NCBI GenBank assembly: GCA_964480435.1
Contig: CAYZSS010000004.1
Coordinates: 1-32,000, forward strand
Direction: 5' to 3'
Origin: an uncultured archaeon
GTDB lineage: Archaea; Iainarchaeota; Iainarchaeia; Iainarchaeales; 0-14-0-20-30-16
DNA: 32,000 bases
Positions 3,007 through 32,000 of this stretch are shown piece after piece. A model generated the notes under the pieces. The model did no database searches and was not told where the DNA came from. It saw nothing but the letters and a program-made list of their open reading frames with translations. The position numbers were made by a program, and so were the translations under genes. How positions within the stretch are numbered: position 1 is the stretch's first letter; the number at the start of each line of letters is the position of its first letter.

Positions 3007-3010
3007 TTTT

Positions 3011-4361: not shown

Positions 4362-4365
4362 ATTT

Positions 4366-5268
4366 ATGAAAAATAAAAAAGTTTTTTCAAAAGGAGTATC
4401 AAGTAGCATAGCCACGAAGATACGGTCTTTTTGGGCCACTCACCCTTTTCTTAAAAGGGCAGAAGGGCAGGCAGCAGTAACAGATGCATTATTTTTCTTA
4501 ACAATTATTTCAGTTGTTAGTGTTCTTCTTTTTACAAGTGCAATGAGTTATGGAAAAGGGTTAATGGAAAGTAGTACAGAATATTATGAAAATACTTTTA
4601 CTGTTTCAGCACTGAAAACTCTTTATGCTGTTGCTGTTCCTTTGGAACCAGATAAATATGACATCTTGGATAGTAACTATAATGATAATTTATTTACTGT
4701 TTTGAAAAAAGATTACTTTATTTCTTCAGTAAATGCAGCGGCAGATCCTGCACAGGAAGCTATGCTTGATATAAATACTCAAAAAAAGTTAATGGAATCT
4801 TTAAAAAAAATTATGGCTCCTCTTGATAAAAGTAAAAATTATTTATTTTATATAAACATTCCTGAAGATGTGTCTGGAAAACAAAAAATGATATTTGTTG
4901 GCTTAGTTACTTTTAGAGATAAATATGACTCTTATACTGGCCCAAACCCAAAAACAACTTATCTTTGTGGGCCTAATCCTGGAAAACCTAGTACCTTAGC
5001 ACTTGATGATATACAACTATATTTGAAAAAACATAGTTTAGGGCAAAGATTTGCAGAAGGAAGGCTGAGTTTATTAGTAAAAAGTGGTGTAGACGATAAA
5101 TTAATTATTGCACATACTGGTCTTATTTCATGGACTGCCTCTCCTGATTTTGATCCTAATGATAATCCATATGATGAGAAAATAGGCGAATTATTAAATG
5201 AAAGATGTTGTAAATATGTTGATGTAAGTGATGCAATAGATTGTAGTAGTGTTTCTCAACCAGACTAA
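4366..5268 (+). CDS. Type IV pilin-like protein with long leader (class III signal-like)
   Basis: GGTGA (4357-4361) sits 4 nt upstream of ATG 4366. The alternative ATG 4345 would overlap the upstream gene. The N-terminal region reads ...HPFLKRAEG|QAAVTDALFFLTIISVVSVLLFTSAM (Gly-Gln followed by a hydrophobic helix). The leader of about 37 aa is unusually long. The C-terminal domain is soluble and ends with a Cys-containing tail. Confidence 0.5.
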   Translation: MKNKKVFSKGVSSSIATKIRSFWATHPFLKRAEGQAAVTDALFFLTIISVVSVLLFTSAMSYGKGLMESSTEYYENTFTVSALKTLYAVAVPLEPDKYDILDSNYNDNLFTVLKKDYFISSVNAAADPAQEAMLDINTQKKLMESLKKIMAPLDKSKNYLFYINIPEDVSGKQKMIFVGLVTFRDKYDSYTGPNPKTTYLCGPNPGKPSTLALDDIQLYLKKHSLGQRFAEGRLSLLVKSGVDDKLIIAHTGLISWTASPDFDPNDNPYDEKIGELLNERCCKYVDVSDAIDCSSVSQPD

Positions 5269-5327: not shown

Positions 5328-5364
5328 GTTTCAGGAGCTGAAACAAATTCCTTTTTTGGAATTT
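5328..5364. terminator. Tandem hairpins with a T6 run between convergent genes (bidirectional terminator candidate)
   Basis: GTTTCAG (5328-5334) / GAG / CTGAAAC (5338-5344) is followed directly by AAATTCC (5345-5351) / TTTTTT / GGAATTT (5358-5364). The second hairpin overlaps the stop codon of the minus-strand gene. Confidence 0.5.
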
Positions 5365-6436
5365 ATTTCTTCTCAACTTTCTTTTTTTCAGTAGGAAGAT
5401 CAAGATTTAAGTTTAAGTCAAGATCTTGAAGATCGGCATTGTTTATTTTTCCTTTTCCACCAAAGTTAGATAAATCTAAATTTAAATCAAACCCCGCACT
5501 TGTTGGAGTAGTTGTTTTTTCTTCAGTATTTTCTTTTTTTATTTTTTCTTCAGCTGGTTTTTCTTCATCTTTTGGAGCCATCATTTTTTTAACTTCTTCA
5601 TCTCTGGCAAGTTGAGCAAAAATATTATCTACTACCTGGTTTATTTCTTCTCTTTTGTCAGGCTCTCTGTTGTGTCTATCTCTGAATCTTCCAACCTCTT
5701 CTTTAGTAAGTCTCTCAATTTCTTCTCTTGGTTTATTTAATTCGGTTTTATCTTTTACTTGAGTATATATTACATCAACAATATTATCTTGCACAGTCCC
5801 GGATGAATTGGATTTTTCAGATTCTATTGATTTTAATCTTTCTCTGTAATGTCTTGAACCATCATCAGTTGTATTTTGTACACTGCTACTTGCTTCTTCT
5901 GGTTTATTTGTATCTCTATAAAATCTTCTAAGTCTTCTGGGAACTTGAGTAATATCTTTGTCTTTATTATTTTGAGTATTTTCTGGTTTTTTTTCAGTTA
6001 TAGCAGGTATGTTGGTTGTAGGTTGTACAGTTTTTCCTATTTCAGGGACAACAGGTTTTGTTTCTATATTATCTGGTTTTTGTTGCTCTTTAGCTACTTC
6101 GACTTCTGTTGTTTTTGGCACCTGTTCCTTCATTTTCATAATCAAATTATCAACCTCACTAAAATCATTTTCTTCTTTTTTTTCAGAAATTGCATCCAGA
6201 TTTGCTGCTGAGTCTTCCACTTCTTCTTTTATAGTCATTTTTTCTGGCTCTTTTGTAATTTCTTTTGGGTTATTTTTTTTACTATAAAGGATATTAACTA
6301 CTTCTTTTGCTATTTTTTGTGAGTATCCCTCAGAAGTAACGGCATTAATAATTTCTTCTTTAGAATAAATATCCTTGTATTTTCCAAGGAGTTCAATTAA
6401 TTTATCTATTTCTTTTGAGACCACGTTAACACCCAA
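5363..6436 (-). CDS. Lys/Glu-rich low-complexity (probably disordered) protein with a small helical N-terminal domain
   Basis: 357-codon ORF. The three plus-strand ORFs overlapping it are F/L/S-rich antisense artefacts. The N-terminal 55 aa (KEIDKLIELLGKYKDIYSKEEIINAVTSEGYSQKIAKEVVNILY) look like a 3-helix bundle. The middle is E/K/T/P-rich. The C-terminus has DLNLDL-type repeats (FDLNLDLSNF, DLQDLDLNLNLDLP) and a KKK tail. The start is non-ATG: TTG 6436 or GTG 6424. Confidence 0.7.
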   Translation of the reverse strand: MGVNVVSKEIDKLIELLGKYKDIYSKEEIINAVTSEGYSQKIAKEVVNILYSKKNNPKEITKEPEKMTIKEEVEDSAANLDAISEKKEENDFSEVDNLIMKMKEQVPKTTEVEVAKEQQKPDNIETKPVVPEIGKTVQPTTNIPAITEKKPENTQNNKDKDITQVPRRLRRFYRDTNKPEEASSSVQNTTDDGSRHYRERLKSIESEKSNSSGTVQDNIVDVIYTQVKDKTELNKPREEIERLTKEEVGRFRDRHNREPDKREEINQVVDNIFAQLARDEEVKKMMAPKDEEKPAEEKIKKENTEEKTTTPTSAGFDLNLDLSNFGGKGKINNADLQDLDLNLNLDLPTEKKKVEKK

Positions 6437-6479: not shown

Positions 6480-6506
6480 AATATTTGTGTCTTTATATTG
6501 GTATTT

Positions 6507-6998
6507 ATGGCAATTACATTTTCAGGGGTATTTTTTTCTGTTTTATATTGGCTAATTTCTGCGGCTGTGCTGTTTTTTATTATTTTATTTTTAGGCCATT
6601 TTTACCAACCTTTTAAAAAGAAGGTAAACATTACTGAAGTTTATTCATTGTTTTTATTTTCTGCAATAGTAGATTATATCCTTTTCATAATAATCTATTT
6701 ACTTCCTTTGATTTTTGGAGTTAGGTCTGATTTGGTGGGGCTCTATGATGTGTGGTACATGTATGTTTATGTTGTTTTTATAATTCTATTAAAATTGTTG
6801 CTTTATTCAGTACTGTTTACTTTGATAATACAACCAGTAATACTTTTAAGCTTATTTTTGTATGAAAAGTTTATTAAAAAGAATAGCGAAATTCTTTCAA
6901 AATTTTATGTTTCTGTAATAATTTCGTTTTTGGTAACTTTTATTTTATTTTTGTTTCCTTGGATTCTTGGGGGATTTATTGCAATGGTATTTTTTTAG
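6507..6998 (+). CDS. Small polytopic membrane protein (about 5 TM segments), function unknown
   Basis: The protein is almost entirely hydrophobic (F/I/L/V-rich) with short basic loops (QPFKKKVN, EKFIKKNSE). I prefer ATG 6507 over the TTG 6498 of the track. Its TAG stop (6996-6998) lies inside the SD of the next gene. Confidence 0.75.
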   Translation: MAITFSGVFFSVLYWLISAAVLFFIILFLGHFYQPFKKKVNITEVYSLFLFSAIVDYILFIIIYLLPLIFGVRSDLVGLYDVWYMYVYVVFIILLKLLLYSVLFTLIIQPVILLSLFLYEKFIKKNSEILSKFYVSVIISFLVTFILFLFPWILGGFIAMVFF

Positions 6999-7007
6999 GT
7001 GACTGCT

Positions 7008-10000
7008 ATGGATAGAAAACTTTTGTTCATGTATTTTATTATTTTTAATATGCTTTTTTCTACTATGGCTTTTGCATATAGTCCCACAACTGTAGATAGT
7101 AGTGTGGCCTGTAGAAATGAAAAATTAAGCCCTGAAGAAATAAACATTCTTTGGGATAACTATCTCAGAACAGGGTTTACTCCAACAAATATTTATTCAG
7201 GAACCCCTGAAGAACTGAAAGCAGAAGAAAAAACAAAAATAAAAGAAGAACCAAAAGCTGGTGAAGAAGGGTTAATACCAAGTATAATGAATATGGCTGG
7301 TGATAAGGCCATTGCAACTGTTGATATAGATACTGGAAAAAAAGTATCCGAAGATGCTCTTTGTTTTACTAAAGTAATTTCTGGTGATTATGCCTATGGT
7401 GGGATTTTATCAGATTCCCTAAGAGTAGGGCGATGTACAGAAGATACTCCTGGTTGTTCTGTATCAGGAGAGGGTTTACAATTTAAAAATACTGAAGGTG
7501 CATTAAAAATTTACTGGGAAGGAGTAAAAGCTATTATTGGTCTTGGTGAGGAAAAAACACAGCCAGGCTCTTATCTTGCAGGTCCAGTAAATACTGAACA
7601 ACTTAAAGAACAAGAAGAAGTAGTATCTGCGTTTGGTACGTCTGAAGCTGTTGAAAGTGCAGATGGTACTGCTGCAGAAAGTGATTTGGCCAGCACAGGT
7701 GCCGCGAGTAATGAATTAGAATTAATGAAAGTAAATCACGAAGCACAACCTAATGCAATGAGTAGCCTTTGGGTTGATGATATGTCTGCAGAGTTTTTGA
7801 TGTTATGTAATAATCAAGATTCAGGAAACAGATGTAGAGTATTATTGTATTCTTTTTTTGATAAATATTACAATTCTTATTATTCTGGTGGTTTAGTGGT
7901 AGTTGCGGGTGGCCCGGTTGCGTGGGGTGCAACAAAAAAACTTTTTGGAGGTATTTCTGCATTTAAATATGGTGGAAAAATAACTACTGGAATAAAAAAA
8001 GTGACGGATCCAGTAAAAGAGTTTATGACCAATACCTGGTATAAGCTAACTGAAAAAGATTTCAAATATTTTTCATCTAATGTGTTAGGAAAAACACAGG
8101 CAGCACTAAAGCACGGTGGAATTGGTGATGGATTAAAAGTTCTTGGAGATAATGTTTATGAAGCAAATACAAGCAAGGCTATTGCTGCTGCTCAAAAAGA
8201 GCTGGTTCCTAAACTGACGACTACTGAGTCAAAAGAAGCAATAGGGGCAGTTTTAGAAGCAAGAGCATCAGCAGCAGAATATGGTAAGGGATATTTAAAT
8301 AGTCTTAAGAATGCAGCCCCTGAATATAAATTAAAGGCTGCAATGCAAGCAGGAGAAAATGCTCCTGCTCTTTTAGGGGCGGAAATGAACAAAGCATTTT
8401 TAGAAAAAAATTATGCTGGTTGGATGTATGATTCTGCTGGCGCAAAGGCTATTAGTTCTGTACCCATTACTGATAAAGTTGCAGCAGAAGGTTTTTTAAA
8501 AGGAAATTTAGACCCTGCAAAAATATATAAAATGGTCCCTGGGCAAAGTCAAGGAAACCATGTAATTGGCAATTTAAAAAATTTTATGCAAAACCACGCG
8601 GGCTCAGATTTCATAGTAGATATTGGTGGTAATCCAGTAATACTTAATGCTGGTACTGTTGATGGTATAGTAGCACAAGCAGGAAAAGAAGGTATTACTG
8701 AACTGGAAATAAAGGCTGGTAGTAGATTAAATATTGATTTTGCTGAGTTTGGGGGTTATGATGGTTTTAGCAAAAAGTTTGCTAAAGATTATTTTGATGA
8801 TGTTTCAAAAAAATATAGTGTTGCCGCAACAAATTATCAAGCAGTAACAGAGGCCTTACAAAGTGCAAAGAAAATCCCTACAAGAAGCCCAAATGCAATG
8901 AAATTCATGATGAATGTTATGAATGGAAAAGGTGGAGCAGCGGGGAGTTTTATATTAAAATATGAAACAATACCAGCATTATATTGGCTTGCAAAAACTA
9001 GTGATTCAAGTCCAATAAAAGCATATATGATAAAAGACCAAGATATTACAAATGTAAAAGCATACACAGGGCCTGACGCAATTTATGCAGGTGCTTATAT
9101 TGATGTTTTCGCAAAAGAAGGTAGTGATAACGGGGATCTATTTAACAAAGCCCTGAAATATACTTTGTTCCCTTTAGATTTATTTAGTAAAGTAGCTCCA
9201 ACAGCAACAGGGTATCTTAAATCATTTTTCGGTCACCAATTTAGGGATACTCCGGGGGATGTAATTATTTATAATGAGGCCTTAAAGTGTACAACTGCCT
9301 CTTGTTTTATTTCATTAACTGGTAGTAAAAAAATAGTAAATGCAGGTGAAGTAAATTTAAGGACAGATAGTTTGCTTATGAGTGGAAAATCATTACAAGG
9401 GACAAAAAATTATTTTGTAGAATTCCCTGATTCTGATGTTTACAAAAAAACAGGTCTTACTTTAGGGGCCTTTGTTCATGGTATGAATGTAGTGGGAAAG
9501 CAGGGGGAAATAAACCTAGCATCTGCTGCAGCAAAGAAGGAAGATTGTTTAACTAAGTCAAAAGAATTAACTATTGCTGGGGTGCCTGTGGGAAGTATAA
9601 TGGCTTCAGATGCTGATCCTGCAAAACTTGCGATGCCAATAGGTATTTTTGAGAATACAATTGGGTTTGTGCTTCCTGGTCTTCCGGGATTGGGAGTTGG
9701 TATTGCTGTAAGTCTACTAATACAGGATGATATTCAGGAACAAATTGGAGAATGTGTAGACACTATTGATGGGTATTATGTAACTTATTCTTTAATACCG
9801 TATAAACCTGAAGAAGACAATGGTATTATGTCAAAAATTAAAGAAACAGTTTCAGAAGGAAAAGAGCAAAAACCGTCTATGCTTACCGATACAGCTATAG
9901 GGAAAGTTGCTGATAAAATAAAAGACCAATTTAGTTCAATAATACAAGATAAAACACATGAAGGTATTCAGATAAACTTGGATACAAAAGGAAAAACAAG

Positions 10001-11384
10001 CCAATCTGTATCTCTTGAGGATGTATTTTTGATTTGGGAAGGGCCAAATGCAAGCCAAACAAATCTGAAATACAAGGACACCGGAAAACTTGCATTAGTA
10101 GATAAGGACGGAAATGCAGCAATTATGGATTTTGATAAAGGTACTTTTACTATTAATGGAGAAACTATAAGTAATCCAGATATTGTTAGATTAATGGAAA
10201 AAGATAATCTTGGGCCATTTATTGCAATGCCTGTGGTAGTAACTGTAATTCCTGCAATAAGTTCGGGAGATATGTTCGAAGCAAAGACAAATGGGGACTT
10301 TGTTGTAAAAGACCCTGGGATGCTAGATTGTATAAGGCAAGGAGTATTTGAACAAACTGGGCAGGAAATGACTGGTAGTTCTTTGTTTGAGCATATGGGA
10401 CCTGTGACCCAGATGTTATTGGAAAATGGGCAAACTGTAGCTCCAACTTTAATAGGTTCAAGCAGTTATTTTGAAATTTTGGGAGGATCTACGGGTCGTG
10501 TTACTTTGTATAATTCAACGCTTACTGTTACAAAAGATAGATCAATAATTGTTAGGAATGCAAAAGAAACTAATCAATATGATAAAGTGGTGGGAATTGC
10601 ATTTGAAAAAGGGTCAATACTTTACAAACCAGAAACAAATGAATTTATTATGTGGATAAAGATTATGGCAGAAATGGATGGAAAGTTTGTTTCTAGTATG
10701 ACTCCAACACACACAACACAAATAAATGAAGAAACTGGTTGTGAAGAAGATGCTTTTGATTTGAAATTAGCTCCTTTGCAAGGGGATGTTACTGCAGCAG
10801 AGGATGTAGACAAGATGAATACCGCTTTAGAAAAAGCAGGGCCATTCCAATACTTTAAAACTCCAGAGTACACTATTATGTTTTATGCGCAGATGGTGGA
10901 TGGTGTTTGTAAAAGATTTATGAAAGTGATGGATAAAGACGGCAATGTAATAAGCGATTCAGAGATAACAAGTATAACAGCAACTCCTGATGGTTATGAA
11001 ATTACAACAGCAGATGGTAAAACACACGATATAGGCTTTTCTGCTGAAAATGGGCAGCCTATGCTGACCTTTGATGGACAAAAATCTCCTTTAACAATAG
11101 CACAAGGAAAAGATGGTGCTTTCTTTTATGACCCTAGTACAGGAAAATGGTATGTTGATAATGCCCAATTACTGCCTATAGATGATGACTTTAAGAGATT
11201 AGGGTCAAACACAGTGGGGAATTCTAATACTCCTGGAGGTAACCCAATAGAAGGTGGATTAAACCCATCAAGTGGTTCAGGCTCAAGTTGGGATATTCCA
11301 TTAACTGATGATTGGTTATTATACGGCTTAGTAATGTTATTTAGTGGAATGTTTGTGTATTTGATTTCAAGAAAGGACGAATAA
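7008..11384 (+). CDS. 1458-aa orphan envelope protein: Sec signal peptide, two internal Gly-rich hydrophobic segments, C-terminal TM anchor
   Basis: AGGTGA (6997-7002) sits 5 nt upstream of ATG 7008. The signal peptide is MDRKLLFMYFIIFNMLFSTMAFA|YS. Internal hydrophobic stretches are GGLVVVAGGPVAWGA (nt 7887-7931) and IGFVLPGLPGLGVGIAVSLLI (nt 9660-9723). The C-terminus is WLLYGLVMLFSGMFVYLISRKDE. Composition is A/G/K-rich, unlike the N/S/T-rich beta-type surface proteins elsewhere in the window. I recognise no domain. Confidence 0.8.
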   Translation: MDRKLLFMYFIIFNMLFSTMAFAYSPTTVDSSVACRNEKLSPEEINILWDNYLRTGFTPTNIYSGTPEELKAEEKTKIKEEPKAGEEGLIPSIMNMAGDKAIATVDIDTGKKVSEDALCFTKVISGDYAYGGILSDSLRVGRCTEDTPGCSVSGEGLQFKNTEGALKIYWEGVKAIIGLGEEKTQPGSYLAGPVNTEQLKEQEEVVSAFGTSEAVESADGTAAESDLASTGAASNELELMKVNHEAQPNAMSSLWVDDMSAEFLMLCNNQDSGNRCRVLLYSFFDKYYNSYYSGGLVVVAGGPVAWGATKKLFGGISAFKYGGKITTGIKKVTDPVKEFMTNTWYKLTEKDFKYFSSNVLGKTQAALKHGGIGDGLKVLGDNVYEANTSKAIAAAQKELVPKLTTTESKEAIGAVLEARASAAEYGKGYLNSLKNAAPEYKLKAAMQAGENAPALLGAEMNKAFLEKNYAGWMYDSAGAKAISSVPITDKVAAEGFLKGNLDPAKIYKMVPGQSQGNHVIGNLKNFMQNHAGSDFIVDIGGNPVILNAGTVDGIVAQAGKEGITELEIKAGSRLNIDFAEFGGYDGFSKKFAKDYFDDVSKKYSVAATNYQAVTEALQSAKKIPTRSPNAMKFMMNVMNGKGGAAGSFILKYETIPALYWLAKTSDSSPIKAYMIKDQDITNVKAYTGPDAIYAGAYIDVFAKEGSDNGDLFNKALKYTLFPLDLFSKVAPTATGYLKSFFGHQFRDTPGDVIIYNEALKCTTASCFISLTGSKKIVNAGEVNLRTDSLLMSGKSLQGTKNYFVEFPDSDVYKKTGLTLGAFVHGMNVVGKQGEINLASAAAKKEDCLTKSKELTIAGVPVGSIMASDADPAKLAMPIGIFENTIGFVLPGLPGLGVGIAVSLLIQDDIQEQIGECVDTIDGYYVTYSLIPYKPEEDNGIMSKIKETVSEGKEQKPSMLTDTAIGKVADKIKDQFSSIIQDKTHEGIQINLDTKGKTSQSVSLEDVFLIWEGPNASQTNLKYKDTGKLALVDKDGNAAIMDFDKGTFTINGETISNPDIVRLMEKDNLGPFIAMPVVVTVIPAISSGDMFEAKTNGDFVVKDPGMLDCIRQGVFEQTGQEMTGSSLFEHMGPVTQMLLENGQTVAPTLIGSSSYFEILGGSTGRVTLYNSTLTVTKDRSIIVRNAKETNQYDKVVGIAFEKGSILYKPETNEFIMWIKIMAEMDGKFVSSMTPTHTTQINEETGCEEDAFDLKLAPLQGDVTAAEDVDKMNTALEKAGPFQYFKTPEYTIMFYAQMVDGVCKRFMKVMDKDGNVISDSEITSITATPDGYEITTADGKTHDIGFSAENGQPMLTFDGQKSPLTIAQGKDGAFFYDPSTGKWYVDNAQLLPIDDDFKRLGSNTVGNSNTPGGNPIEGGLNPSSGSGSSWDIPLTDDWLLYGLVMLFSGMFVYLISRKDE

Positions 11385-20992: not shown

Positions 20993-22276
20993 CTAATTTT
21001 TATTTTTCATTTTTTTGTATTTTTTGAATCCAAAATATGCACCAACAAGCGCTGCTAAAATTATGATGTACCAATAGATCGATAGTCCACTGTTTTTTGT
21101 TGTAGCCATTGCACCAAATTTTGTGGCCGTGCTTTTTGCATCAGAAAGTAAAGTTACCTCTTTTGTAATTATTTGTCTTTTTCCAGTAGTATCTGTGTAA
21201 TGTATTTCAATAGTAATTGCGTCACTTATTGTGTTGTGAGGAGCATTAATATCTAAAGGAATTTGCATTTTATCAGTTGGTGTTTTTCCCGTAGTAGTTG
21301 GTTTTTGAAAATTCATATCTACCGACATAGTTTCAAAGCTCGCAATTGTAAAGTCTCCTTTTTCAATTGTGCCTAATATTGCTGAGTCTGCTCCTGCTGT
21401 TTTTATGTTTTGTTGTTTAGGTATTTTTATTATTGTTGATTGTGCATCATTCATACCAATATTTGCAATACTTAAAGTAATCTGGGTGCTTGATGCTTTT
21501 TCAGCACTTATATCAAAATCGGTTTCTCCTCCAACAATAACTCCGACAGTTGATTGTTCACTGCTTGTTCCTGCGCTATCCTGAAAGCTTATTGTTATAT
21601 CTAATGGGTAAACACCTGGAACAATATCTTTGTCCGTTGCAATTGGAAAAGTAATGACTGTTGTTTTATCTTGATCAATGAAGTCTATGTGTTTTGTGTT
21701 ATTTGTCCCTAAAGGTAAAATTAAATTGCTTGATTCAGCCCAATTTAAATCAATGTTTGATACTTTTTGACCACTAATGTTGGTAATTGCAAAGTTTAAA
21801 TCAGTAATGCTTCCGGGGTTAATTATATTTGGAAAAACTTCTAAATCAAAATTTGTGTTTTTGCTTGAAACTGTAATAGTTATATTTTGTTGCTCTGAAA
21901 CTATTTCGCCATCTCTTTCATAATTTATATTTAAAAAAACTGGGTAATATCCTTCTAATGTTGTGTCCTTTGCTTTAATTTTAAATGCAAGAGTTTGTTC
22001 AGCATTTGGGCTAAGAGAAGCTAGTGTATCCTCAATATCCAATGGTTCAAAATTTGTACCTGCATCTAAGGTTGCTTTTAAATTAGTAATGTAAAAAATT
22101 GACCCTGCGTCTTTTACTGTAACTCCTATATTAACAATATCACCTGGCGCAATAGTTGCAGGTAGTATGTTTGTGCCCGTAATTTCTAATAAGTAATATG
22201 GCTCTGAAACTGCAAATCCATAACTTGAAATTACAACTGTTATTAACAATAATAAAAATATATTTTTGAAATTCAT
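20993..22276 (-). CDS. CARDB/COG1361-like surface protein with signal peptide and C-terminal TM anchor
   Basis: Signal peptide MNFKNIFLLLLITVVISSYGFA. Beta-sandwich signatures repeat (APGDIVNIGVTVKDAGS, NPGSITDLNFAITNISG, VPGVYPLDITISF). C-terminus LSIYWYIIILAALVGAYFGFKKYKKMKNKN. GGAGG lies 7 nt upstream of the ATG. The gene is embedded between the ABC ATPase and permease genes. Confidence 0.75.
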   Translation of the reverse strand: MNFKNIFLLLLITVVISSYGFAVSEPYYLLEITGTNILPATIAPGDIVNIGVTVKDAGSIFYITNLKATLDAGTNFEPLDIEDTLASLSPNAEQTLAFKIKAKDTTLEGYYPVFLNINYERDGEIVSEQQNITITVSSKNTNFDLEVFPNIINPGSITDLNFAITNISGQKVSNIDLNWAESSNLILPLGTNNTKHIDFIDQDKTTVITFPIATDKDIVPGVYPLDITISFQDSAGTSSEQSTVGVIVGGETDFDISAEKASSTQITLSIANIGMNDAQSTIIKIPKQQNIKTAGADSAILGTIEKGDFTIASFETMSVDMNFQKPTTTGKTPTDKMQIPLDINAPHNTISDAITIEIHYTDTTGKRQIITKEVTLLSDAKSTATKFGAMATTKNSGLSIYWYIIILAALVGAYFGFKKYKKMKNKN

Positions 22277-23692: not shown

Positions 23693-24940
23693 ATGCAGAT
23701 TAGTTACAATAATTACATTGACAAGATTATCAATAGTAGAACTAACTGTGCTGAATTTATGAAAGTTCCTGTTAATATTCAGGCACGCGTATTTTTGTTT
23801 TTACCACAACACATTCAAAAAAATATTTTACAAAACATATCAGAAATTCATTTGTTAAAACTTCTTAAATACCCCGCTCCTGATGATGTGACTGACATAA
23901 TACAGAAACTGTCTTATTTTAAAAGAAAGAAAATATTGGATAAACTAGAAACTGAACTAAGAGAAAAAGTATCTTATTTACTAAAATACCCTGAGGATAC
24001 TGCAGCAGGAATGATGGATTTAAACTATGTTTTGGCATCAGTGGATTTAAAGTTTAAGGACCTGGCAAATATTGTTGAAAAACACAAAAATAAAACAGGA
24101 AAAGACCCGGTTGTTTTGGTTGAAGAAAATGGTGTTCTGCTTGGGGAATTATCTGCCACATCTTTTATTTTGAATTCTCCTAGTAAAGAAATAAAAAACA
24201 ATATTACCAAAATTCCTGTTGTAAAATATAATGAAAAACATTCAAAAGTTTTTAAATTATTTGAACATAATAAAAATAACAAAATTGTTGTTTTAGATAG
24301 CGACAATTCTATAATGGGTATAATTTATGCACACGATATTTATAAGTTAGTAAAAAAACAAAGAACAAAGGACATGTATGACTTTGCAGGACTAAAACAA
24401 GAAGAAGATATTTTTGATAGTTTTTATCTAAAATTTAAAAATAGGTGCTTTTGGTTAGTTATAAATCTTTTTACAGCATTTCTTGCATCTCTGGTTGTAG
24501 CAATATTTAGAGATGTAATTTCAGCAGTAGTGATGCTTGCAGCATATATGCCTATTGTTGCTGGTATGGGTGGTAATGCAGGCACCCAGACCCTGGCAGT
24601 AACTGTAAGGGGATTAGCCCTGCATAATTTAAAAACTAAGGCGCTTTCAAGAATTTATTTTAATGAATTAGTGTCTGCTTTTTTAATTGGGCTAGTAGTA
24701 GGGGCATTTGCAATTGTTTTGGCATATGTCTTGAATGCGAGTTTAATTTTTGGAGTAATTGTAGCAGTATCTGTGTTGGCTAATTTATTAGTAGCAGCAA
24801 CGGTTGGATTTTTTATCCCTGTGCTTTTGAAAAAATTAGGGAAAGATCCTGCAACATCATCAAGTATTTTTATTACTACTTTTACTGATGTTCTTGGATT
24901 CTTTGTATTCTTGGGCTTGGCCACTTTAATTTTCTTGTGA
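23693..24940 (+). CDS. mgtE: Magnesium transporter MgtE
   Basis: MgtE N-domain, then a CBS pair (VLVEENGVLLGELS; VVLDSDNSIMGIIYAHDI), then a TM domain with the signature PIVAGMGGNAGTQTLAVTVRGLAL. Confidence 0.92.
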   Translation: MQISYNNYIDKIINSRTNCAEFMKVPVNIQARVFLFLPQHIQKNILQNISEIHLLKLLKYPAPDDVTDIIQKLSYFKRKKILDKLETELREKVSYLLKYPEDTAAGMMDLNYVLASVDLKFKDLANIVEKHKNKTGKDPVVLVEENGVLLGELSATSFILNSPSKEIKNNITKIPVVKYNEKHSKVFKLFEHNKNNKIVVLDSDNSIMGIIYAHDIYKLVKKQRTKDMYDFAGLKQEEDIFDSFYLKFKNRCFWLVINLFTAFLASLVVAIFRDVISAVVMLAAYMPIVAGMGGNAGTQTLAVTVRGLALHNLKTKALSRIYFNELVSAFLIGLVVGAFAIVLAYVLNASLIFGVIVAVSVLANLLVAATVGFFIPVLLKKLGKDPATSSSIFITTFTDVLGFFVFLGLATLIFL

Positions 24941-25981
24941 TTGTGGCATAGTAATATTTTGTGAATTATTTAGGTATCCACCCTTTCTAAATACTAGGTA
25001 TCCCAAAATTAATACTATTGCAAATATTAATCCAATAGTAACTGCTCTATTTTCTAAACTAAACAAAGCAGTAGATTTGCCTAGTATCCCACTTAAACTA
25101 TTTGTCATTGTGGCAGCTAAATTTGTATCTGTGTTGTCACTTGTATTGTTTGCTAAATTAGTCTGTTCTGGTATTATTACTACTGGTTTTTGGAAAGCAA
25201 AATATTCTGCTCCCAATTCAAACTTTTTATTTGTGTGGGTATCAACTAAAATAAAATTAAAAGTAGTGTCTACGCAGTTGCTGTTATTATCATAATTTGC
25301 ATAAAAATCTAACTTGTATTCGAAAGTAGGTGCTAGGTTTACATAGGAGTAATCATCTGTGATGTAAAAACAATTACTGTCTCCTTCAAAAATAGGAACA
25401 AAATCTGAGTTTCCACCAGTATTTGCTACGATTACTGAAAATTGTTCTTTTACATTATTTGGGCCCAATGCAACAACACTGTTTTCCCAATTTATTACTA
25501 CTGGGTTTGGAGCTGAGTTGTAGTAGTTTGATTTAATATCATAATTGTCTTTATCATTTGCCTTTATTGTAATTGTTGCAGTTTCTGATTTTGAAGTAAA
25601 CTGGTTCTTAGCAAGAACATTAATTTCTAGTTTATATTCTTTATTTTCTAGGTCTTCAGGAACTGCTATGTTAATTACCTTATAATGTGAATACTTGGTT
25701 GTAATTGTTTGAGGATTTGTAACAACTGTAAAAGGGCTATTAAAAGAATAAATAAATTCAACATCTGTTGTAGTTTTTAAATCAATATAAAGCTTAATTA
25801 TAGCTGTGGACCCTTTTTCTAGGCTTAAATATGTTTGCTCTGGGGTTACACTAAAGCTGAAATCTTTTGCTTCTTGGGCAAGCTTTTTGTCCATGTCATA
25901 GGTAGTGTATGGGAAAACCAAACTGCCTAATAAAAATACCCCGAATAAAATACCCATAATAAAAGCTAGTTTCTTAACCAT
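24926..25981 (-). CDS. Surface protein with N-terminal signal/anchor and C-terminal TM anchor (351 aa)
   Basis: N-terminus MVKKLAFIMGILFGVFLLGSLVFP. The body is beta-rich and N/T/S-rich. C-terminal TM segment VTIGLIFAIVLILGYLVFRKGG. The TATA-like GTATATAA (26003-26010) is centred about 26 nt upstream of the ATG. The 3' end overlaps mgtE by 15 nt (convergent). Confidence 0.75.
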   Translation of the reverse strand: MVKKLAFIMGILFGVFLLGSLVFPYTTYDMDKKLAQEAKDFSFSVTPEQTYLSLEKGSTAIIKLYIDLKTTTDVEFIYSFNSPFTVVTNPQTITTKYSHYKVINIAVPEDLENKEYKLEINVLAKNQFTSKSETATITIKANDKDNYDIKSNYYNSAPNPVVINWENSVVALGPNNVKEQFSVIVANTGGNSDFVPIFEGDSNCFYITDDYSYVNLAPTFEYKLDFYANYDNNSNCVDTTFNFILVDTHTNKKFELGAEYFAFQKPVVIIPEQTNLANNTSDNTDTNLAATMTNSLSGILGKSTALFSLENRAVTIGLIFAIVLILGYLVFRKGGYLNNSQNITMPQSQEN

Positions 25982-26000
25982 ATTAATTACTTAACTCACT

Positions 26001-26089
26001 AAGTATATAAACATATCTTTTTACTTAGCTGTAGAAAACCATTTATATAAATATCCTTTTTATTTTATACGTACTTAATATATATAAGA
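26001..26089. promoter_or_regulatory. Divergent leaderless promoters for the 351-aa gene and the giant ORF
   Basis: TATA-like boxes at 26003-26010 (minus gene) and about 26079-26086 (plus gene) are each centred about 26 nt from the respective ATG (25981 and 26109). A third TATA-like element, TTTATATAAA, lies at 26042-26051. Confidence 0.45.
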
Positions 26090-26108
26090 TTTAATCACTT
26101 GGCTAGGG

Positions 26109-29100
26109 ATGACTATGGGTTTAGGCGAATTTTTTGGGAAAATAAATGAAAAAATGAATTCTGGTTATAACAAAATTGTGGAATTTTTGGATGCAAAAGG
26201 GATTCCTGCCCAAAAATATACTGATTTTTTGGAAGAAAAAGGTATACCTGCTATGTGGTTTACCTTGCTGATGATCCTGGTAATAATTTCTGTGATTGTC
26301 TTGTTGGTTACAATAATTTTTACCCCTAGTACAAACCTAACAATTAGTATTATGACTAATGATGGTTTTTCCCCTGATTCTGTATTTTTAAATATTACTA
26401 AAGTGGCAGATGGGCAAGTAATAATTTCTGAGCAAGTTAAAGATGGTACTGAAATAAAAATAAAAGGTGTTGGTGTTGGAGATTCATTATATTTTTCAGG
26501 TACTTTAGAAGGTTATTCTTATGACTCCCCAAACAATGTATCGATTTCTGAAAAAAACTTAACTGTAACTTTGATATTTAATAAAGAAGAACAAACTGGG
26601 AGTGTTAGTTTTAAAGTAATAAATAAAGAAGAACAAACAAGTGTAGCGAATGCTTTGATTTCGTTTTCTGATTCTGGGGATACATTGTCTTCTGGCCCCA
26701 CTGATGAGTATGGTGCCTTTAAATTAATTTTACCTATGAAAAAAATAAATGTTACTGTTGATAAAGATGGTTATGAGCCTTATAGTAAAACAATAGACCT
26801 GCTAGAGGGAAATGATTATATTATTGAATTAGTTCCTAAGGAATTTGACCCTAATGCTGAAGGAAATTTTAAGTTTATTGTAAAAGATACATCGCTTAAT
26901 TCTCTGAATAATGTAAGTATTGATGTTTATAATCTAAAGACTAATTCAAAAATTGGAACTGCGTTAACAAATACAGATGGTATAGGGATATTCAATACAA
27001 AAAAAGGAACTTCTATAAGATTTGTTGCAAAAAAAGAAGGTTATGAAACATTTGATTCAAATATTGAAGGTATTTCCCGAACTTTAGTTACTGATGAAGA
27101 ACTAATATCTCTATCTATGTTTGCTGGTGGTAGTAAGCTAAAAGTAATAGTAAAAGATGAGTTAGGAGTTACTTTAGATAATGTTTATGTTGCTCTTTAC
27201 ACTTCCATGCTTTTGGAGCAAATGCAGGAAACAACGGATATAGGTGGCGTGGCAGAATTTTCTGGGTTGGACTATACAATCTTAAAATATGCTTCTGTTT
27301 ACAAAGAAGGTTATTACCCCCAAACACAAACAATTGATGGATCTGGAGAAATAACTTTCACTCTTGAAAAAGTAGATTTGTCAAAAGCTGCTATTGTTGA
27401 TGTGTTTTGTGTTGATTCTGATAAAAAACCAGTAGGAGATGCATTTTTGGAACTTAGTTATGATGAAAATTCAGAATTATTTCCTTTAGCATATCCTAAT
27501 CCAACAACATCAGTAACTGGTTATTTTACATTTAATTTTAAACCTGATGTTGTTTTGTATGCTTCTGCAAGTACTGAAGAAGGTTATGGATCTGCATCAT
27601 TATTACTAAAACAAGGAAGAAATAGATTAGATATTTCTATGACAAAAACCGGAAGTAAATTTACTATGTATCTTTATGATAAAGATGGAAATCCACTATC
27701 AAATGCTCATGTAATGCTTTTTGATAAACAAGGAAATTTAGTTTTTGATGGTTATACAGATGCAACTGGGAAAATAGAGGCTGATGCATTAGGAAATAAA
27801 GAACTTGATATGTATGTCACTGATGAGAATGGAAACAATTATTCAATGACAATAAATCCAAAAGATAAAATGCAAATAAAATTAGATGCAGCAAAAAATA
27901 CTGATAATTTATTTGTGGCTTTATCAAAAGTGACTGATTTGGAAGGCAATGAAGTTTCTGCTTTGCAAAAAGGAAAAACATATTTTTTATTATTTAATAT
28001 TTTTTGGCCTGCTGGATTTTATAATGGTGGGCTCCATGTAAGAGTTGGAAAAGATAGCGATAAATTTGCTGCATCTCAAGATGTTGGGATTATTGGCTAT
28101 GATGGTATTGCAGATAGTGTAAAATACGGGATAATGTTCTCTCCTCTGCCATTGCCTGGAGATTATTCTACAGATTACTACTCTACTGGTAGTGCTGGGC
28201 AATTTAATAAATGGATGGAGTTGTATTTTTCTGCGCCTAGTGGAAATAGTACTGTAAAAGTAAGAATAAAATCAAAAGCAAATACTGACATAAATTCTTT
28301 TGAAGTAAGATATAGGGCTTGGACTGATGAAGCCGGGACAATAAGCAGAATGCCTGTTGATAATATTTTGGGGCAAGAAGAAAATACAAAAACAAAATAT
28401 GGTTTATATGCTGATGCTTATATGAAAGAAATTAGCTTAATGTCAGGTTCTTTAAACTGCCAATATGATGTTTGTGTATCGTATAAAATAATTGATGATC
28501 AATACACATACGACATTGCAAAATTTAATTCGGTTTTAGATTATTATTATGCTTTAGATGTGGAATTAACCTCAACTTCAGAACAAAATTTATCTTTGTC
28601 TGTTCAAACAGAAGACAATCCAAAATTATATTTGAATAACGTGGATATGGATGCAACAACTTTTAATCCCGGAACAGAAAATAATACAAAACTTAATACC
28701 TCTTTTGACTTGGGGGCAATGGAAAATAAAACAATAAGAGTTTACTTTAATCCTTTTAAAGAAGGGCTTACAAAAATTGATGTGAAAACTATAACTCCAA
28801 AAGGAGTAATTGAGAAAACAATCCCAGTGAATATTTTTCCAAAGAAAGAAATGCAAGTAATATTAAGTAGTGATTTTATTCCAACTGGCCAAGATTTTTT
28901 TGTAATTGTAAAAGAATCAAATGGAGACTATATTCCAAATGCACAAATTACAATTTCTGATAATAAAACAAAACAAAACAAAATGTTTATTGAGGGTACC
29001 GGCCAAATAGATTTAGGAAAAGAAGGAAAATACACAATAAAAAATAGCCTAGATAGCGCATTTTATTTGATGTCAGTAAGTGCCCCAGGTTATTTACCAA

Positions 29101-32000
29101 AAGAAATGGAGTTTTTAGTTGGAAATGTTGGTGCTTTATTTGTAAAAGGAGAAAATGAAATAATTGTTCCAAAAACTGCTAAACAGGCAACAATAAAAAT
29201 ACCTGTGCAAAATAAATCAAAGCTTCCAATAGACTCGATGCAAATTAATGTTATAAGTTCTACTTTATCAACTAATTTTGCTTTTAATGCAAGAATGGTA
29301 ACTCCGGCAATACCTGCGAATTCTTTGGCTGATATGTCTGTCTCTGTAAATTATAGCGGGGCAGAAGATATGGAAAATGGGGTTGTAGAATTAGAAATTC
29401 TTGGTGTGCAAAATAGTAAAGATATTGTAAGAGTAAGAACAAAAGTATTTGTATATTATAATAAAGAAATAAAAAATGTAAATTGTTTGTGGGTAAGTAA
29501 AGAGTCATTAGTTTATAGTTTGCCTGCAATACAAAATGCAAAAGAAGAAGATTCTTTAGTAGTAAAAAATAACTGTGAATATGATTTGAAAGTAATGCCG
29601 TCTCTTGTTTCAGAAGACTCTGCAAATTATGGTCTGCAAATGCAAATTTTGGGGTTTGATATTAAAAAGGGTGAAGAAAAAGTAGTAAACCTTTCACTTA
29701 TAAATCAAAATCCATCTGTGCAAGCAGATGAAACAAAAATATTATCATTATATTTTGCAACAGACTATTTTACAAAAAATATCCCTGTGAGTGTAACAAT
29801 TTGGAACGCATCAGGTTCATTGTCAATCTTAACTGCTGGACAGATTTTTATTTCTGCATTTAAAGAATTGCAGAGCCAATATGTGCCTGTAATTATTCAA
29901 AATGTTGGACGATTACCAATTTATAATATTCAATTGGCAGCATCTAATAATAAGTATCAAGTACAGTCTGCTCAGCAGTATCCTGATTTGATTAGTAGTT
30001 CTGTAAATTCTAATTCTTCAGGAATTACTAAAGACTATTACGCAAATTTACAAAACGCACAAAGTCAATATAACAGTGTTTATAACAGCCCTTCAATTGG
30101 GTCTAATTTATCTGCTAGTCAAGGAATTAATTTTATACCCGCAACAATTCAGGTTTTGGCTCCTGGGCAGTCTACTATGCTTCAAGGATATATAAATATG
30201 CCATCATCTTCAAAGCAAACAGAAATGTATTATTTGCTTAATGCTAAAGGTACAGTTCAGGGACTTAATCAACCAATAACTGCACAATCAATGTTGGTAA
30301 TACATGTTTCACCTGATAAGTGTGTTACTCTGAAACAAGAAACAAAATTAACTTATATTAGTGATATACTTGGTAAGGATTTAGCAAGAACATTTACTTT
30401 GATAAATAATTGTGCTGAGCCAGTAAATATAACTGGAATAAATGAAAGCGATTTGTTTGGAAATAAAGTTGTTTTGAGTGCACCAAATGGTAGTACAATT
30501 AATCTTGGGCAAGAAAAAGAATTTATTTTAACAATTACTGCAAGTAAAGAAATCTCAAGAGATAATTCAGTATTTGTAAAAGCACAATTGGGGACAAGTA
30601 ATGCTCCATTCAATATACCATTAATTGTTAATTTAAGGTTTGGTGGGGGAGCATCAACATCTGCTGGAGAAGCAAATGTAAGTGAAGAAAAAAGAATAAA
30701 AAATTGTACAACAAATGAAGAAGTATCTGTATTCTATCCAAGAATGTCTAATGCGGATTGTTCCACCATGGGGTATTGTGATGGGGAATCAATGTCTAAA
30801 TTTTTAATTGCAAAATTAAAATTTTATCTGGATGTATATAATAAAAAATTAGCAACAATAAATAACAAATTAATAAATACAAATTGTAAACTTGGTTCAA
30901 CAGCTTGTTCATTTGAAGACTTTGGTTTAGAACCATTAGAAATGGACGTTTATTTTGCGAATGATAAACTAACGGAAGAACAAATGAAACTGGATTTTAA
31001 GAAAATGAATATGGGGCTGTTAGAAACAGCTATAACAGACAAAGTTGTTTTAACTGATGTTACCTCTACTTGGGCAAAAAGATTGTATTTAGATAAACAA
31101 TTAGACGGCTGTGGAAAATATAAAATAAGAATTACTGGTGCAGTAATGGTAATTAATAATGATTCAATACAAAGAGATAGTTACAACATGTATATCGAGG
31201 TTTTAAGTAAAGAAAAAACCCCGCAGTGTGATATTAAAGTACAAAACGCCTTGAACTTTTTGCCAAAAGATGCACAAACAAAAAAAGATAATCCTTATGG
31301 ATTAAGAATAGGTTACGTTGATTATGCGTCAAGTAATTTAGAAAAAATAGCAGCAAAAGTTTCAACAAGTTTGTTTAGTGTGGATAGGTATATGAAATCA
31401 AAACCAAATACTATTTTCTTGAAAACAGATTCTGTTGCAGAAGGAAATTTAGTTGAATTTAGTATTGCAAAAACAGGAACAGATGTGGTGACTACTGTAA
31501 AAATAAATAAAAATTTGGACCTTTCAAATGTTGCAATTATTGATGATATAGTAAAAGCAATTATGGGCTTTATAAATGGAAATTTTGATGGCTGTATGAA
31601 TCTTACTTCTGATGGAGTTCCTAATTCAGCACAGGTGAAGTCCGGAACAGGTGGAATAACAGGGACTAAAAAAGATGCAAAAGAAGTATACTCAGGGGAT
31701 ATAAAAATAGGTGTTTGTGATAAACTGCCTCTGGGAAAAGGAAAATGGTCTTGTACTATAAATTTAGAATCACAATCTTTGGGTAGATTAAATTTGGCTT
31801 TGACTTACCCTGAAGGAACTGGGTTTGAAGCTTATATTGACTCTCCTGGCCAAAAATCAAAATCAGTGGATTTGAAAAAAAATGGCAATAAATATGAGGG
31901 TAGCTCAAAAATTACTGTTGAGATTAGTGATCCTTTCTTGGTTAATTCAGGGGCAAATAATGATAGTGTTGGTTTGTTCTACTATGCCGAAAAAGATGGT
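26109..32000 (+). CDS. Giant membrane-anchored surface protein, at least 1964 aa; 3' end outside the window (absent from the ORF track)
   Basis: I translated 26109-32000 by hand. ATG 26109 opens a frame with no stop through nt 32000 (5892 nt, 1964 codons). The 48-aa cytoplasmic tail contains the duplication FLDAKGIPA/FLEEKGIPA. A TM helix (MWFTLLMILVIISVIVLLVTIIF) lies at nt 26253-26321. Six tandem carboxypeptidase-regulatory-like domains follow, then further beta-sandwich-like segments and Cys-containing regions. All minus-strand track ORFs in this span are antisense artefacts. Confidence 0.9.
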   Translation, partial: MTMGLGEFFGKINEKMNSGYNKIVEFLDAKGIPAQKYTDFLEEKGIPAMWFTLLMILVIISVIVLLVTIIFTPSTNLTISIMTNDGFSPDSVFLNITKVADGQVIISEQVKDGTEIKIKGVGVGDSLYFSGTLEGYSYDSPNNVSISEKNLTVTLIFNKEEQTGSVSFKVINKEEQTSVANALISFSDSGDTLSSGPTDEYGAFKLILPMKKINVTVDKDGYEPYSKTIDLLEGNDYIIELVPKEFDPNAEGNFKFIVKDTSLNSLNNVSIDVYNLKTNSKIGTALTNTDGIGIFNTKKGTSIRFVAKKEGYETFDSNIEGISRTLVTDEELISLSMFAGGSKLKVIVKDELGVTLDNVYVALYTSMLLEQMQETTDIGGVAEFSGLDYTILKYASVYKEGYYPQTQTIDGSGEITFTLEKVDLSKAAIVDVFCVDSDKKPVGDAFLELSYDENSELFPLAYPNPTTSVTGYFTFNFKPDVVLYASASTEEGYGSASLLLKQGRNRLDISMTKTGSKFTMYLYDKDGNPLSNAHVMLFDKQGNLVFDGYTDATGKIEADALGNKELDMYVTDENGNNYSMTINPKDKMQIKLDAAKNTDNLFVALSKVTDLEGNEVSALQKGKTYFLLFNIFWPAGFYNGGLHVRVGKDSDKFAASQDVGIIGYDGIADSVKYGIMFSPLPLPGDYSTDYYSTGSAGQFNKWMELYFSAPSGNSTVKVRIKSKANTDINSFEVRYRAWTDEAGTISRMPVDNILGQEENTKTKYGLYADAYMKEISLMSGSLNCQYDVCVSYKIIDDQYTYDIAKFNSVLDYYYALDVELTSTSEQNLSLSVQTEDNPKLYLNNVDMDATTFNPGTENNTKLNTSFDLGAMENKTIRVYFNPFKEGLTKIDVKTITPKGVIEKTIPVNIFPKKEMQVILSSDFIPTGQDFFVIVKESNGDYIPNAQITISDNKTKQNKMFIEGTGQIDLGKEGKYTIKNSLDSAFYLMSVSAPGYLPKEMEFLVGNVGALFVKGENEIIVPKTAKQATIKIPVQNKSKLPIDSMQINVISSTLSTNFAFNARMVTPAIPANSLADMSVSVNYSGAEDMENGVVELEILGVQNSKDIVRVRTKVFVYYNKEIKNVNCLWVSKESLVYSLPAIQNAKEEDSLVVKNNCEYDLKVMPSLVSEDSANYGLQMQILGFDIKKGEEKVVNLSLINQNPSVQADETKILSLYFATDYFTKNIPVSVTIWNASGSLSILTAGQIFISAFKELQSQYVPVIIQNVGRLPIYNIQLAASNNKYQVQSAQQYPDLISSSVNSNSSGITKDYYANLQNAQSQYNSVYNSPSIGSNLSASQGINFIPATIQVLAPGQSTMLQGYINMPSSSKQTEMYYLLNAKGTVQGLNQPITAQSMLVIHVSPDKCVTLKQETKLTYISDILGKDLARTFTLINNCAEPVNITGINESDLFGNKVVLSAPNGSTINLGQEKEFILTITASKEISRDNSVFVKAQLGTSNAPFNIPLIVNLRFGGGASTSAGEANVSEEKRIKNCTTNEEVSVFYPRMSNADCSTMGYCDGESMSKFLIAKLKFYLDVYNKKLATINNKLINTNCKLGSTACSFEDFGLEPLEMDVYFANDKLTEEQMKLDFKKMNMGLLETAITDKVVLTDVTSTWAKRLYLDKQLDGCGKYKIRITGAVMVINNDSIQRDSYNMYIEVLSKEKTPQCDIKVQNALNFLPKDAQTKKDNPYGLRIGYVDYASSNLEKIAAKVSTSLFSVDRYMKSKPNTIFLKTDSVAEGNLVEFSIAKTGTDVVTTVKINKNLDLSNVAIIDDIVKAIMGFINGNFDGCMNLTSDGVPNSAQVKSGTGGITGTKKDAKEVYSGDIKIGVCDKLPLGKGKWSCTINLESQSLGRLNLALTYPEGTGFEAYIDSPGQKSKSVDLKKNGNKYEGSSKITVEISDPFLVNSGANNDSVGLFYYAEKDG
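26337..27885 (+). repeat. Six tandem domains of about 86-90 aa, carboxypeptidase-regulatory-like / PEGA-like beta-sandwiches (coding repeat)
   Basis: Each unit has a V-x-V-x-D...(N/D)(A/V)-x-(V/I)...TD-x-x-G-x-(F/A)...(E/D)GY-x-(P/T) pattern. An example is NVSIDVYNLKTNSKIGTALTNTDGIGIFNTKKGTSIRFVAKKEGYETF. The (E/D)GY codons recur at 26508, 26766, 27036, 27306 and 27579 (spacing 258-273 nt). A seventh, isolated copy lies at about 28851-29120. Confidence 0.7.

Follow-up and report, generated by a model that had tools for sequence, protein, structure and literature searches.

A 10.4-kb gene at the edge of the window

The DNA analysed here (the window) is a 32,000-nucleotide stretch from an uncultured archaeon, positions 1 to 32,000 of contig CAYZSS010000004.1, and its right end is occupied by a gene for a predicted giant surface protein that runs off the edge. 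Translation from the ATG at 26109 to nucleotide 32000 on the forward strand gives 1,964 codons with no stop, in agreement with the uninterrupted frame reported in the initial annotation of this sequence; the frame was missing from the open reading frame (ORF) track available to that annotation because the listing omits ORFs that run off the source. The window has a G+C content of about 30%, and given its base composition, the chance of an open stretch of this length is approximately 1e-73. The remaining forward frames contain 188 and 230 stops over the same interval. Using a codon-usage model trained on 13 other genes from the window, we found that the proposed frame ranked first in every one of the 37 sliding windows (450 nucleotides each), so the coding potential that had been called for is present over the whole span. 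G+C content by codon position is 0.41, 0.34 and 0.18 for the first, second and third positions.

The end of the gene proved difficult to reach. Earlier attempts at extension by an exact look-up of the upstream neighbour, a metagenome scan and a protein search with the end region gave nothing further, a look-up with MgtE returned only 2.7-kb contigs, and the species-representative genomes held only relatives at 65%, 66% and 29% identity, with no copy of the window's gene. A profile search with an alignment of the whole family returned a protein of 3,457 amino acids (P0012) with 100% identity to the 1,962 residues encoded in the window. Its complete gene is carried by another contig (L010; ENA ERZ27248961, k141_64815), whose first base corresponds to window base 24,997 and which overlaps the window for 7,004 nucleotides with 0 mismatches; both contigs may stem from the same reads. 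The stop codon, which the initial annotation had proposed to find by extending the contig, lies at window-equivalent nucleotide 36,488. The window holds the 5' 57% of a single 10.4-kb gene (26115 to 32000 on the forward strand, the first 1,962 codons of 3,457). As the enzymatic domains described below illustrate, the meaning of a gene at a window edge can change entirely after its end is recovered.

Giant genes often break assemblies, and two close relatives of this gene are cut at contig ends, which would be in keeping with a long frame produced by an assembly artefact or left by a decaying pseudogene. We regard that as extremely improbable in view of the identity of the two contigs, the clean stop after 3,457 codons and the uniform coding signal. 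Furthermore, from 26000 to 32000 there is no DNA repeat of 25 nucleotides or more except one chance pair, making repeat collapse unlikely. Complete relatives are colinear with the giant protein over residues 3 to ~1,916 with the frame unbroken and, together with the identical L010 sequence, they rule against the frameshift that had been considered earlier.

The translation start is most likely the ATG at 26115, preceded by a leader, rather than the in-frame ATG at 26109. Relatives begin with 'MG(L/V)GEFF', which corresponds to the second Met of the window frame, and the same holds for P0012 and three relatives (P0001-P0003), which begin 'MG(L/V)G/MAIG…'. The ATG at 26109 sits inside a Shine-Dalgarno-like GGGATGA (26106 to 26112, forward strand) that ends 2 nucleotides upstream of the ATG at 26115, and in two related loci (L003 and L007) a GGTGAT occurs 3-4 nucleotides ahead of the respective 'MG..' and 'MP..' starts. 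These elements leave the leaderless start proposed for 26109 unsupported. The TATA-like box of the same proposal is present as ATATATAA at 26080 to 26087 on the forward strand, within the 133-nucleotide divergent intergenic region 25982-26114; the sequence around it is conserved in L003 (a 66%-identity relative), consistent with a putative promoter element. Residues are numbered below from the ATG at 26115 unless otherwise stated.

Genomic context

Genes for L15e, S13/S15, S3Ae, the RNase P subunit Pop5 and PAC2 mark the window as archaeal DNA; among its other genes are those for a patatin, a RIO-type kinase, a MacB/FtsX ABC transporter and MgtE, and no tRNA gene was found in it. P0001, which at 66-67% identity is the nearest relative of the giant protein, carries the annotation Candidatus Iainarchaeum, and its locus is syntenic with the window, sharing Pop5, patatin, S15, S3Ae, UPF0147 and MgtE. 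Other relatives are annotated as Candidatus Diapherotrites. Taken together, the archaeal genes and the names and synteny of the relatives point to an Iainarchaeota-like DPANN archaeon.

Downstream of the giant gene, L010 carries an RNA polymerase operon and genes for L7Ae, S12 and S7. A 281-nucleotide AT-rich intergenic region (L010 11493-11773, window-equivalent 36489-36769) separates the stop codon from Rpb5/RpoH, the first gene of the operon. With the RNA polymerase operon as its direct neighbor, the giant gene occupies a core-genome position, with no obvious mobile island. Upstream, across the divergent intergenic region, lies a gene on the reverse strand (24926-25981) for a 351-residue protein with an N-terminal signal-like helix, a C-terminal transmembrane (TM) anchor and no Pfam match; in L003, a homolog (35% identity) is encoded on the strand opposite to the giant gene, about 2 kb upstream of it.

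A conserved N-terminal tail defines a family of giant proteins

The first 46 residues (26115 to 26252, forward strand) are the best-conserved piece of the giant family and contain an internal duplication (FLDAKGIPAQKY / FLEEKGIPAMWF). The consensus of this tail, ..YxxLEDKYYxxLDxLxxKGIPVYxxxDFLExKGIPAFP, is followed directly by a TM helix, and no Pfam or NCBIfam model corresponds to it. The helix (residues 47-70, 26253 to 26324; residues 53-71 if counted from 26109) is the only strong one in the protein, with a Kyte-Doolittle hydropathy of 3.47 over 19 residues, and is predicted to act as a signal anchor; the tail of about 48 residues and single TM helix given in the initial annotation were thus well placed. 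With this topology, the tail would face the cytoplasm and the remainder of the protein would be displayed outside the cell. The tail may itself be a sorting or anchoring signal.

Searching 1.84 billion representatives with a profile of the tail and TM helix, we identified 1,062 proteins at E <= 1e-3, 487 of them at E <= 1e-10, and the match always falls at the extreme N-terminus of the cluster representative. The tail marks at least 1,062 clusters and offers a simple marker for more than 1,000 clusters of giant proteins. Among the 150 matches listed, lengths fall into two groups, one short and one of 2,200-3,400 amino acids; the short group probably consists of contig fragments. A look-up of clusters returned hardly any taxonomic names. 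The tail is common to paralogous giants within the same locus (18925- and 26606- in L007, 19933- and 26929- in L008), and such paralogous genes form arrays of two or three.

The body within the window is built largely of beta-sandwiches

Past the TM helix, residues 73-594 (26331 to 27896, forward strand) comprise about six tandem units of 86-91 residues that resemble CarboxypepD_reg beta-sandwiches. The Pfam model PF13620 (CarboxypepD_reg) scores 76.3 bits against a cut-off of 32.3, with three significant stretches in tandem, and the remaining units are placed by spacing and motif; of the six repeats first proposed, three are therefore individually significant. Five of the roughly six units end in (E/D)GY. 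The (E/D)GY codons listed at 26508, 26766, 27036, 27306 and 27579 are exact, and there is an additional one at 27747. A bMG3/Big_1-like match covers residues 515-580, with bMG3 scores of 37.8 and 32.6 bits against a cut-off of 34.9. We rejected an alpha-2-macroglobulin or thioester protein, given that 0 of 41 Cys residues are followed by xEQ and only one marginal MG-like stretch is present.

Residues 588-1010 (27876 to 29144, forward strand) were modelled with AlphaFold from a 14-sequence alignment, giving four beta-sandwich domains at a mean pLDDT (predicted local distance difference test) of 87.9. The first of these, a large conserved domain, has a Cys-x4-Cys pair as well as His, Arg, Asp and Lys residues that are invariant. 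The last is a seventh CarboxypepD_reg-like unit (28881-29129, forward strand; residues 923-985), detected by a hidden Markov model of the repeats in the window and also by Pfam in relatives, as had been predicted. Foldseek returned only generic tandem immunoglobulin (Ig) arrays for this region, all with low TM-scores: PrgB, integrin alpha legs, HYDIN, a Haloferax S-layer protein, alpha-2-macroglobulins and AgI/II adhesins. An enzyme or lectin fold for this region, earlier described as aromatic-rich, was discarded on the basis of the confident four-sandwich model and its generic Ig-array matches.

Further beta-sandwich-like segments, with a Q/S/N-rich low-complexity stretch, are predicted for residues 1010-1480 (29142 to 30554, forward strand), where the Pfam match is weak and Cep192/PapD-like. 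Two invariant Cys pairs with 30-residue spacing occur here (residues 1124/1154 and 1403/1433). The several N-x-C-x-x-P motifs described previously did not hold up, as the strict motif occurs once. The window ends within a Cys-rich mixed alpha/beta module (30678 to 32000, forward strand; residues 1522-1974) with the conserved motifs C..C....YCD, GCGKY and T..C...I(E/Q)N. The Cys-containing regions noted near 30700-31750 belong to it, with Cys codons at nucleotides 30705-31752 that are conserved in the family. The AlphaFold model of the module is of moderate confidence (pLDDT ~70-88), and no convincing fold match was found in Foldseek.

A predicted murein-directed enzymatic tip beyond the window

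The part of the protein encoded beyond the window changes its character. First comes a Gly/Ala/Cys-rich hydrophobic module at residues 2072-2157. It is followed by a P/T/G/E linker at about residues 2225-2300, then by a helical spacer of about 400 residues (2300-2700) that is Cys-free and rich in A/E/K/Q/L, and which in the family comparison is present in P0012 only. After a second linker, rich in P/A/T, comes a Gly-zipper-like helix at residues 2776-2801 (Kyte-Doolittle 1.63).

Two enzymatic domains stand at the tip. The first is a Cys-rich SLT (GH23) lytic transglycosylase domain (PF01464, 47.9 bits against a cut-off of 21.3) with its motifs intact: AILKSE2914SGFN, GLGQI (2929-2933) and AAYNMG (3021-3026). 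MltE/EmtA align with this stretch by sequence, and the NCBIfam lytic-transglycosylase models give weak matches to the tip. The second is an SGNH/GDSL esterase domain (PF13472 Lipase_GDSL_2, 49.2 bits against a cut-off of 32.9) in which the blocks GDS3136L, CAVGGKQT, GGINDL and H3280 can be seen, and which is matched by solved SGNH hydrolases by sequence. A short P/T linker and a Cys-containing end domain of 125 residues complete the protein, which ends ...AYAPC without a TM helix. The full-length sequence thus yields a defined SLT-SGNH fragment, with E2914 and S3136 as candidate catalytic residues.

The hydrophobic segments at residues 2072-2157 and 2779-2803 raise the idea of a membrane-inserting delivery device, in which the N-terminal helix would remain in the archaeal membrane, the Gly/Ala/Cys module and the Gly-zipper helix would enter the partner's membrane and the enzymes would reach a Gram-negative periplasm. 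It is in line with this that the first segment is conserved family-wide ('..AC(M/L)..GPxGW..DCG(I/L)P') and precedes the enzymes, and there are weak Foldseek matches to diphtheria toxin. We nevertheless consider such a device rather improbable, as the hydropathy of these segments is marginal (1.1-1.6), the Gly-zipper motif is mostly too polar for a TM helix in relatives, and the same modules are retained in members that have no enzymes. We give the toxin matches no weight because they lie in a part of the model with an AlphaFold pLDDT below 50, and a diphtheria-toxin fold for the Cys-rich module was disregarded for that reason. Likewise, hydropathy in the relatives makes it unlikely that the Gly-zipper helix is a general second TM segment.

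Tips are exchanged within a sub-clade of a widespread scaffold

Relatives at 25-30% identity are colinear from residue 1 to ~1,800-2,200, and their C-termini differ. Among relatives at about 29-30% identity, the tip consists of DUF2272 and SLT in one (P0002), of SLT and GDSL in another at ~29% identity (P0003), and of a weak glucosaminidase match plus Amidase_2 in a complete protein of 2,930 amino acids (L006); a relative at 25% identity (P0006) has NlpC/P60. Single-sequence searches suggest the SLT and GDSL pair in a further protein, P0091, and no recognised hydrolase tip was found in P0004, P0005, P0007 or P0008. Across the family, the common body ends at a Gly-zipper-like motif. Members that have no enzymes stop ~90-100 residues past the motif, and the window's sub-clade adds an enzyme cassette of 250-800 residues there.

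In contrast to the tip, the body, ~2,000 residues of beta-sandwich domains plus the Cys-rich module, is widely shared. Ninety of the 95 long family members have the module at residues 600-800, and 68 have the Cys-rich core. In an evenly spaced, blind sample of 34 full-length members, all 34 have CarboxypepD_reg repeats and approximately four have a recognisable murein hydrolase (domain counts: SLT 2, NlpC/P60 1, Amidase_2 1, GDSL 1). On this sample, the hydrolase tip is not a family-wide trait. Given the restriction of the tip to a sub-clade, the hydrolase appears to be an elaboration on a widespread giant scaffold.

The same distribution could be taken to mean that the protein is structural, as part of a cell coat, an S-layer-like protein or a general adhesin, its tip being accessory, used to trim glycans in the environment or to recover amino sugars from dead bacterial walls and not to attack living cells. 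The beta-sandwich body found in every sampled relative, most of them with no recognisable hydrolase, speaks for this, as do the fold matches to an archaeal S-layer protein and to bacterial adhesins; arrays of two or three paralogous giants would be expected of major envelope components. The features of the ends, on the other hand, make a structural role unlikely. S-layer proteins do not usually combine an N-terminal signal anchor with a strongly conserved cytoplasmic tail, and we saw neither a lattice-forming nor a C-terminal anchor signal in the giant protein. Furthermore, the tip of the window's sub-clade is always murein-specific and of changing type, a pattern that fits conflict or host interaction better than housekeeping.

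The initial annotation had called the product a giant adhesin or S-layer-like protein. An N-anchored, multi-domain and mostly beta-sandwich surface protein is what we find, yet the label misses the SLT and SGNH/GDSL tip, and the S-layer comparison fits it poorly. Because the 46-residue tail stands ahead of the sole strong hydrophobic helix, a Sec-type signal peptide is not evident, and the C-terminus is enzymatic; an N-terminal signal anchor combined with a conserved tail and C-terminal enzymes would be unexpected in an archaeal S-layer protein.

A tethered protein that would act on bacterial walls

To our knowledge, archaea make no murein, so that the substrate of the tip would be the bacterial cell wall. 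We consider it probable (about 0.6) that the product is a tethered protein for degrading, or attaching to, the walls of bacteria. The N-terminal helix would anchor the protein, with the tail in the cytoplasm and the rest outside; an extracellular body is supported by the single N-terminal TM helix, the conserved Cys pairs and the adhesin-, integrin- and S-layer-like beta-sandwich models. The stalk would then hold the enzymes tens of nanometres off the archaeal membrane. With the enzymes tethered in this way at the archaeal surface, their action would require contact, and the tip may open the wall of the contacted bacterium for attachment, feeding or killing. Plausibly, the SGNH domain serves as a de-O-acetylase that strips the O-acetyl groups blocking lytic transglycosylases. 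In bacteria, O-acetylation of MurNAc blocks these enzymes and is removed by the esterase Ape1 (PMC7083599).

Several observations weigh against a wall-directed function. The scarcity of hydrolases in the 34-protein sample means that the conserved body must have a function of its own. As regards the enzymes, GH23 domains also act on chitin-like glycans; the SGNH Asp three residues before the catalytic His aligns to Gly (compared with 3p94); Ape1 is not among the sequence matches of the SGNH domain; and no LysM, PG_binding or SH3b wall-binding domain was detected. The two hydrophobic segments before the tip could be membrane-embedded, which would alter the topology, and we know of no bacterial partner for Iainarchaeota.

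Neighboring gene sets and the left edge

Three genes in the window, 15 kb upstream of the giant gene, resemble sets found near giant genes elsewhere. They encode a charged protein of 357 amino acids (5363-6436, reverse strand), a multi-TM protein of 166 amino acids (6498-6998, forward strand) and a protein of 1,461 amino acids (6999-11384, forward strand) whose N-terminus is signal-like and which contains three additional hydrophobic segments; no Pfam model matches any of the three proteins. Directly behind the giant gene in L006 is a trio of 379 (reverse), 165 (forward) and 1,462 (forward) amino acids. Its large protein is homologous to that of the window over the full length at 29% identity, and the 379-residue protein matches the window's 357-residue protein weakly over ~100 residues. 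The contig of P0002 has proteins of 380 (reverse), 164 (forward) and 1,483 (forward) amino acids, a likeness in sizes and orientations alone.

Four consecutive small ORFs lie at 2473-5268 on the forward strand. At least two of them have clear class-III (type IV pilin-like) signal peptides (e.g. MILKNSKGQ/ESIVFEVLIAV and RAEGQ/AAVTDALFFLTII), and the N-termini of the remaining two contain hydrophobic segments. Homologs of two of these ORFs lie upstream of the giant gene in L007, where a T2SSE-type ATPase is encoded as well, and pilin-like genes are located between the giant paralogs in L007 and L008.

A 427-residue protein with a signal peptide, a C-terminal TM anchor and no Pfam match is encoded at 20993-22276 on the reverse strand, between the ABC ATPase and MacB/FtsX permease genes, and could belong to the transporter as a surface component. 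At the left edge, ORF 1-2436 (forward strand) is open from base 1 and encodes 811 very Cys-rich residues, with a single CARDB match that barely exceeds the threshold; the gene itself starts left of the window, which contains the part for its C-terminus. BLAST showed no similarity between it and the giant family, so it was rejected as a paralog. The genome is rich in surface genes, in line with the initial annotation. Its statement that giant surface genes are cut at both window edges holds in that a Cys-rich gene for at least 811 residues is indeed cut at the left; this gene is unrelated to the giant family.

Comparison with known systems

The prevailing view is that DPANN archaea depend on other cells, and for most lineages the partner is not known. 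The presence, in an Iainarchaeota-like genome, of a predicted set of tethered enzymes that can act only on murein suggests that the partners or prey are bacteria. A broader proposal, doubtful at this stage, would be that the tail, stalk, Gly/Cys module and exchangeable tip, possibly with the trio and the pilins, form an apparatus for contact between archaeon and bacterium, the tail being an undescribed sorting or anchoring signal, and that Iainarchaeota-like DPANN archaea live on or prey upon bacteria and not archaea. With the complete architecture, a family marker and the exchange of cassettes in hand, the bacterial-partner hypothesis becomes directly testable.

A conserved body whose C-terminal enzymatic cassettes differ from homolog to homolog is reminiscent of bacterial polymorphic toxins and contact-dependent effectors. 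Unlike these, the giant protein carries a membrane anchor and shows no secretion-system signal, and there is no adjacent immunity gene, the gene being followed by the RNA polymerase operon. An archaeon needs no immunity protein against murein hydrolases.

Very large surface proteins of ultra-small cells are also known from Omnitrophota, whose giant 'Archaeovorins', some with SLT, have been proposed to function in prey adhesion and wall digestion (bioRxiv 10.1101/2023.11.21.568195). They differ in being bacterial and at least 10 times larger, with many TM regions, SecA-like domains and other domain content.

Among archaea, Strock et al. (2025) reported modular peptidoglycan hydrolases from ~5% of genomes and the killing of a bacterium by two haloarchaeal M23 enzymes (PMC12352652). 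The giant protein shares with these an archaeal enzyme directed at a polymer found only in bacteria, as well as patchy distribution and domain shuffling. The hydrolases of that study are small and secreted, and combine a catalytic with a wall-binding domain, whereas the giant protein is predicted to be tethered by its N-terminal anchor and has a stalk of ~2,800 residues and no recognised wall-binding domain.

The general theme of large DPANN lytic-transglycosylase proteins is already known. The closest description is that of fam00969 by Castelle et al. (2021), large proteins reported as specific to Pacearchaeota and Woesearchaeota, for which binding and degradation of bacterial walls have been proposed (PMC8204110); similar DPANN genes appear in Vigneron et al. 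(2022) (PMC9723730) and in an oxygen-deficient-zone survey (PMC10936187). The giant protein resembles fam00969 in its DPANN genome, its ~3,000-residue scale and an SLT/GH23 domain in a murein-free organism, a likeness in described features. It differs in its Iainarchaeota-like genome, in the pairing of SLT with an SGNH esterase, and in a tip that is exchangeable and absent from most of the wider family. Unlike the reported DPANN proteins, its scaffold is defined by an undescribed N-terminal tail. As such, the gene extends a feature reported for Pacearchaeota and Woesearchaeota to a further lineage.

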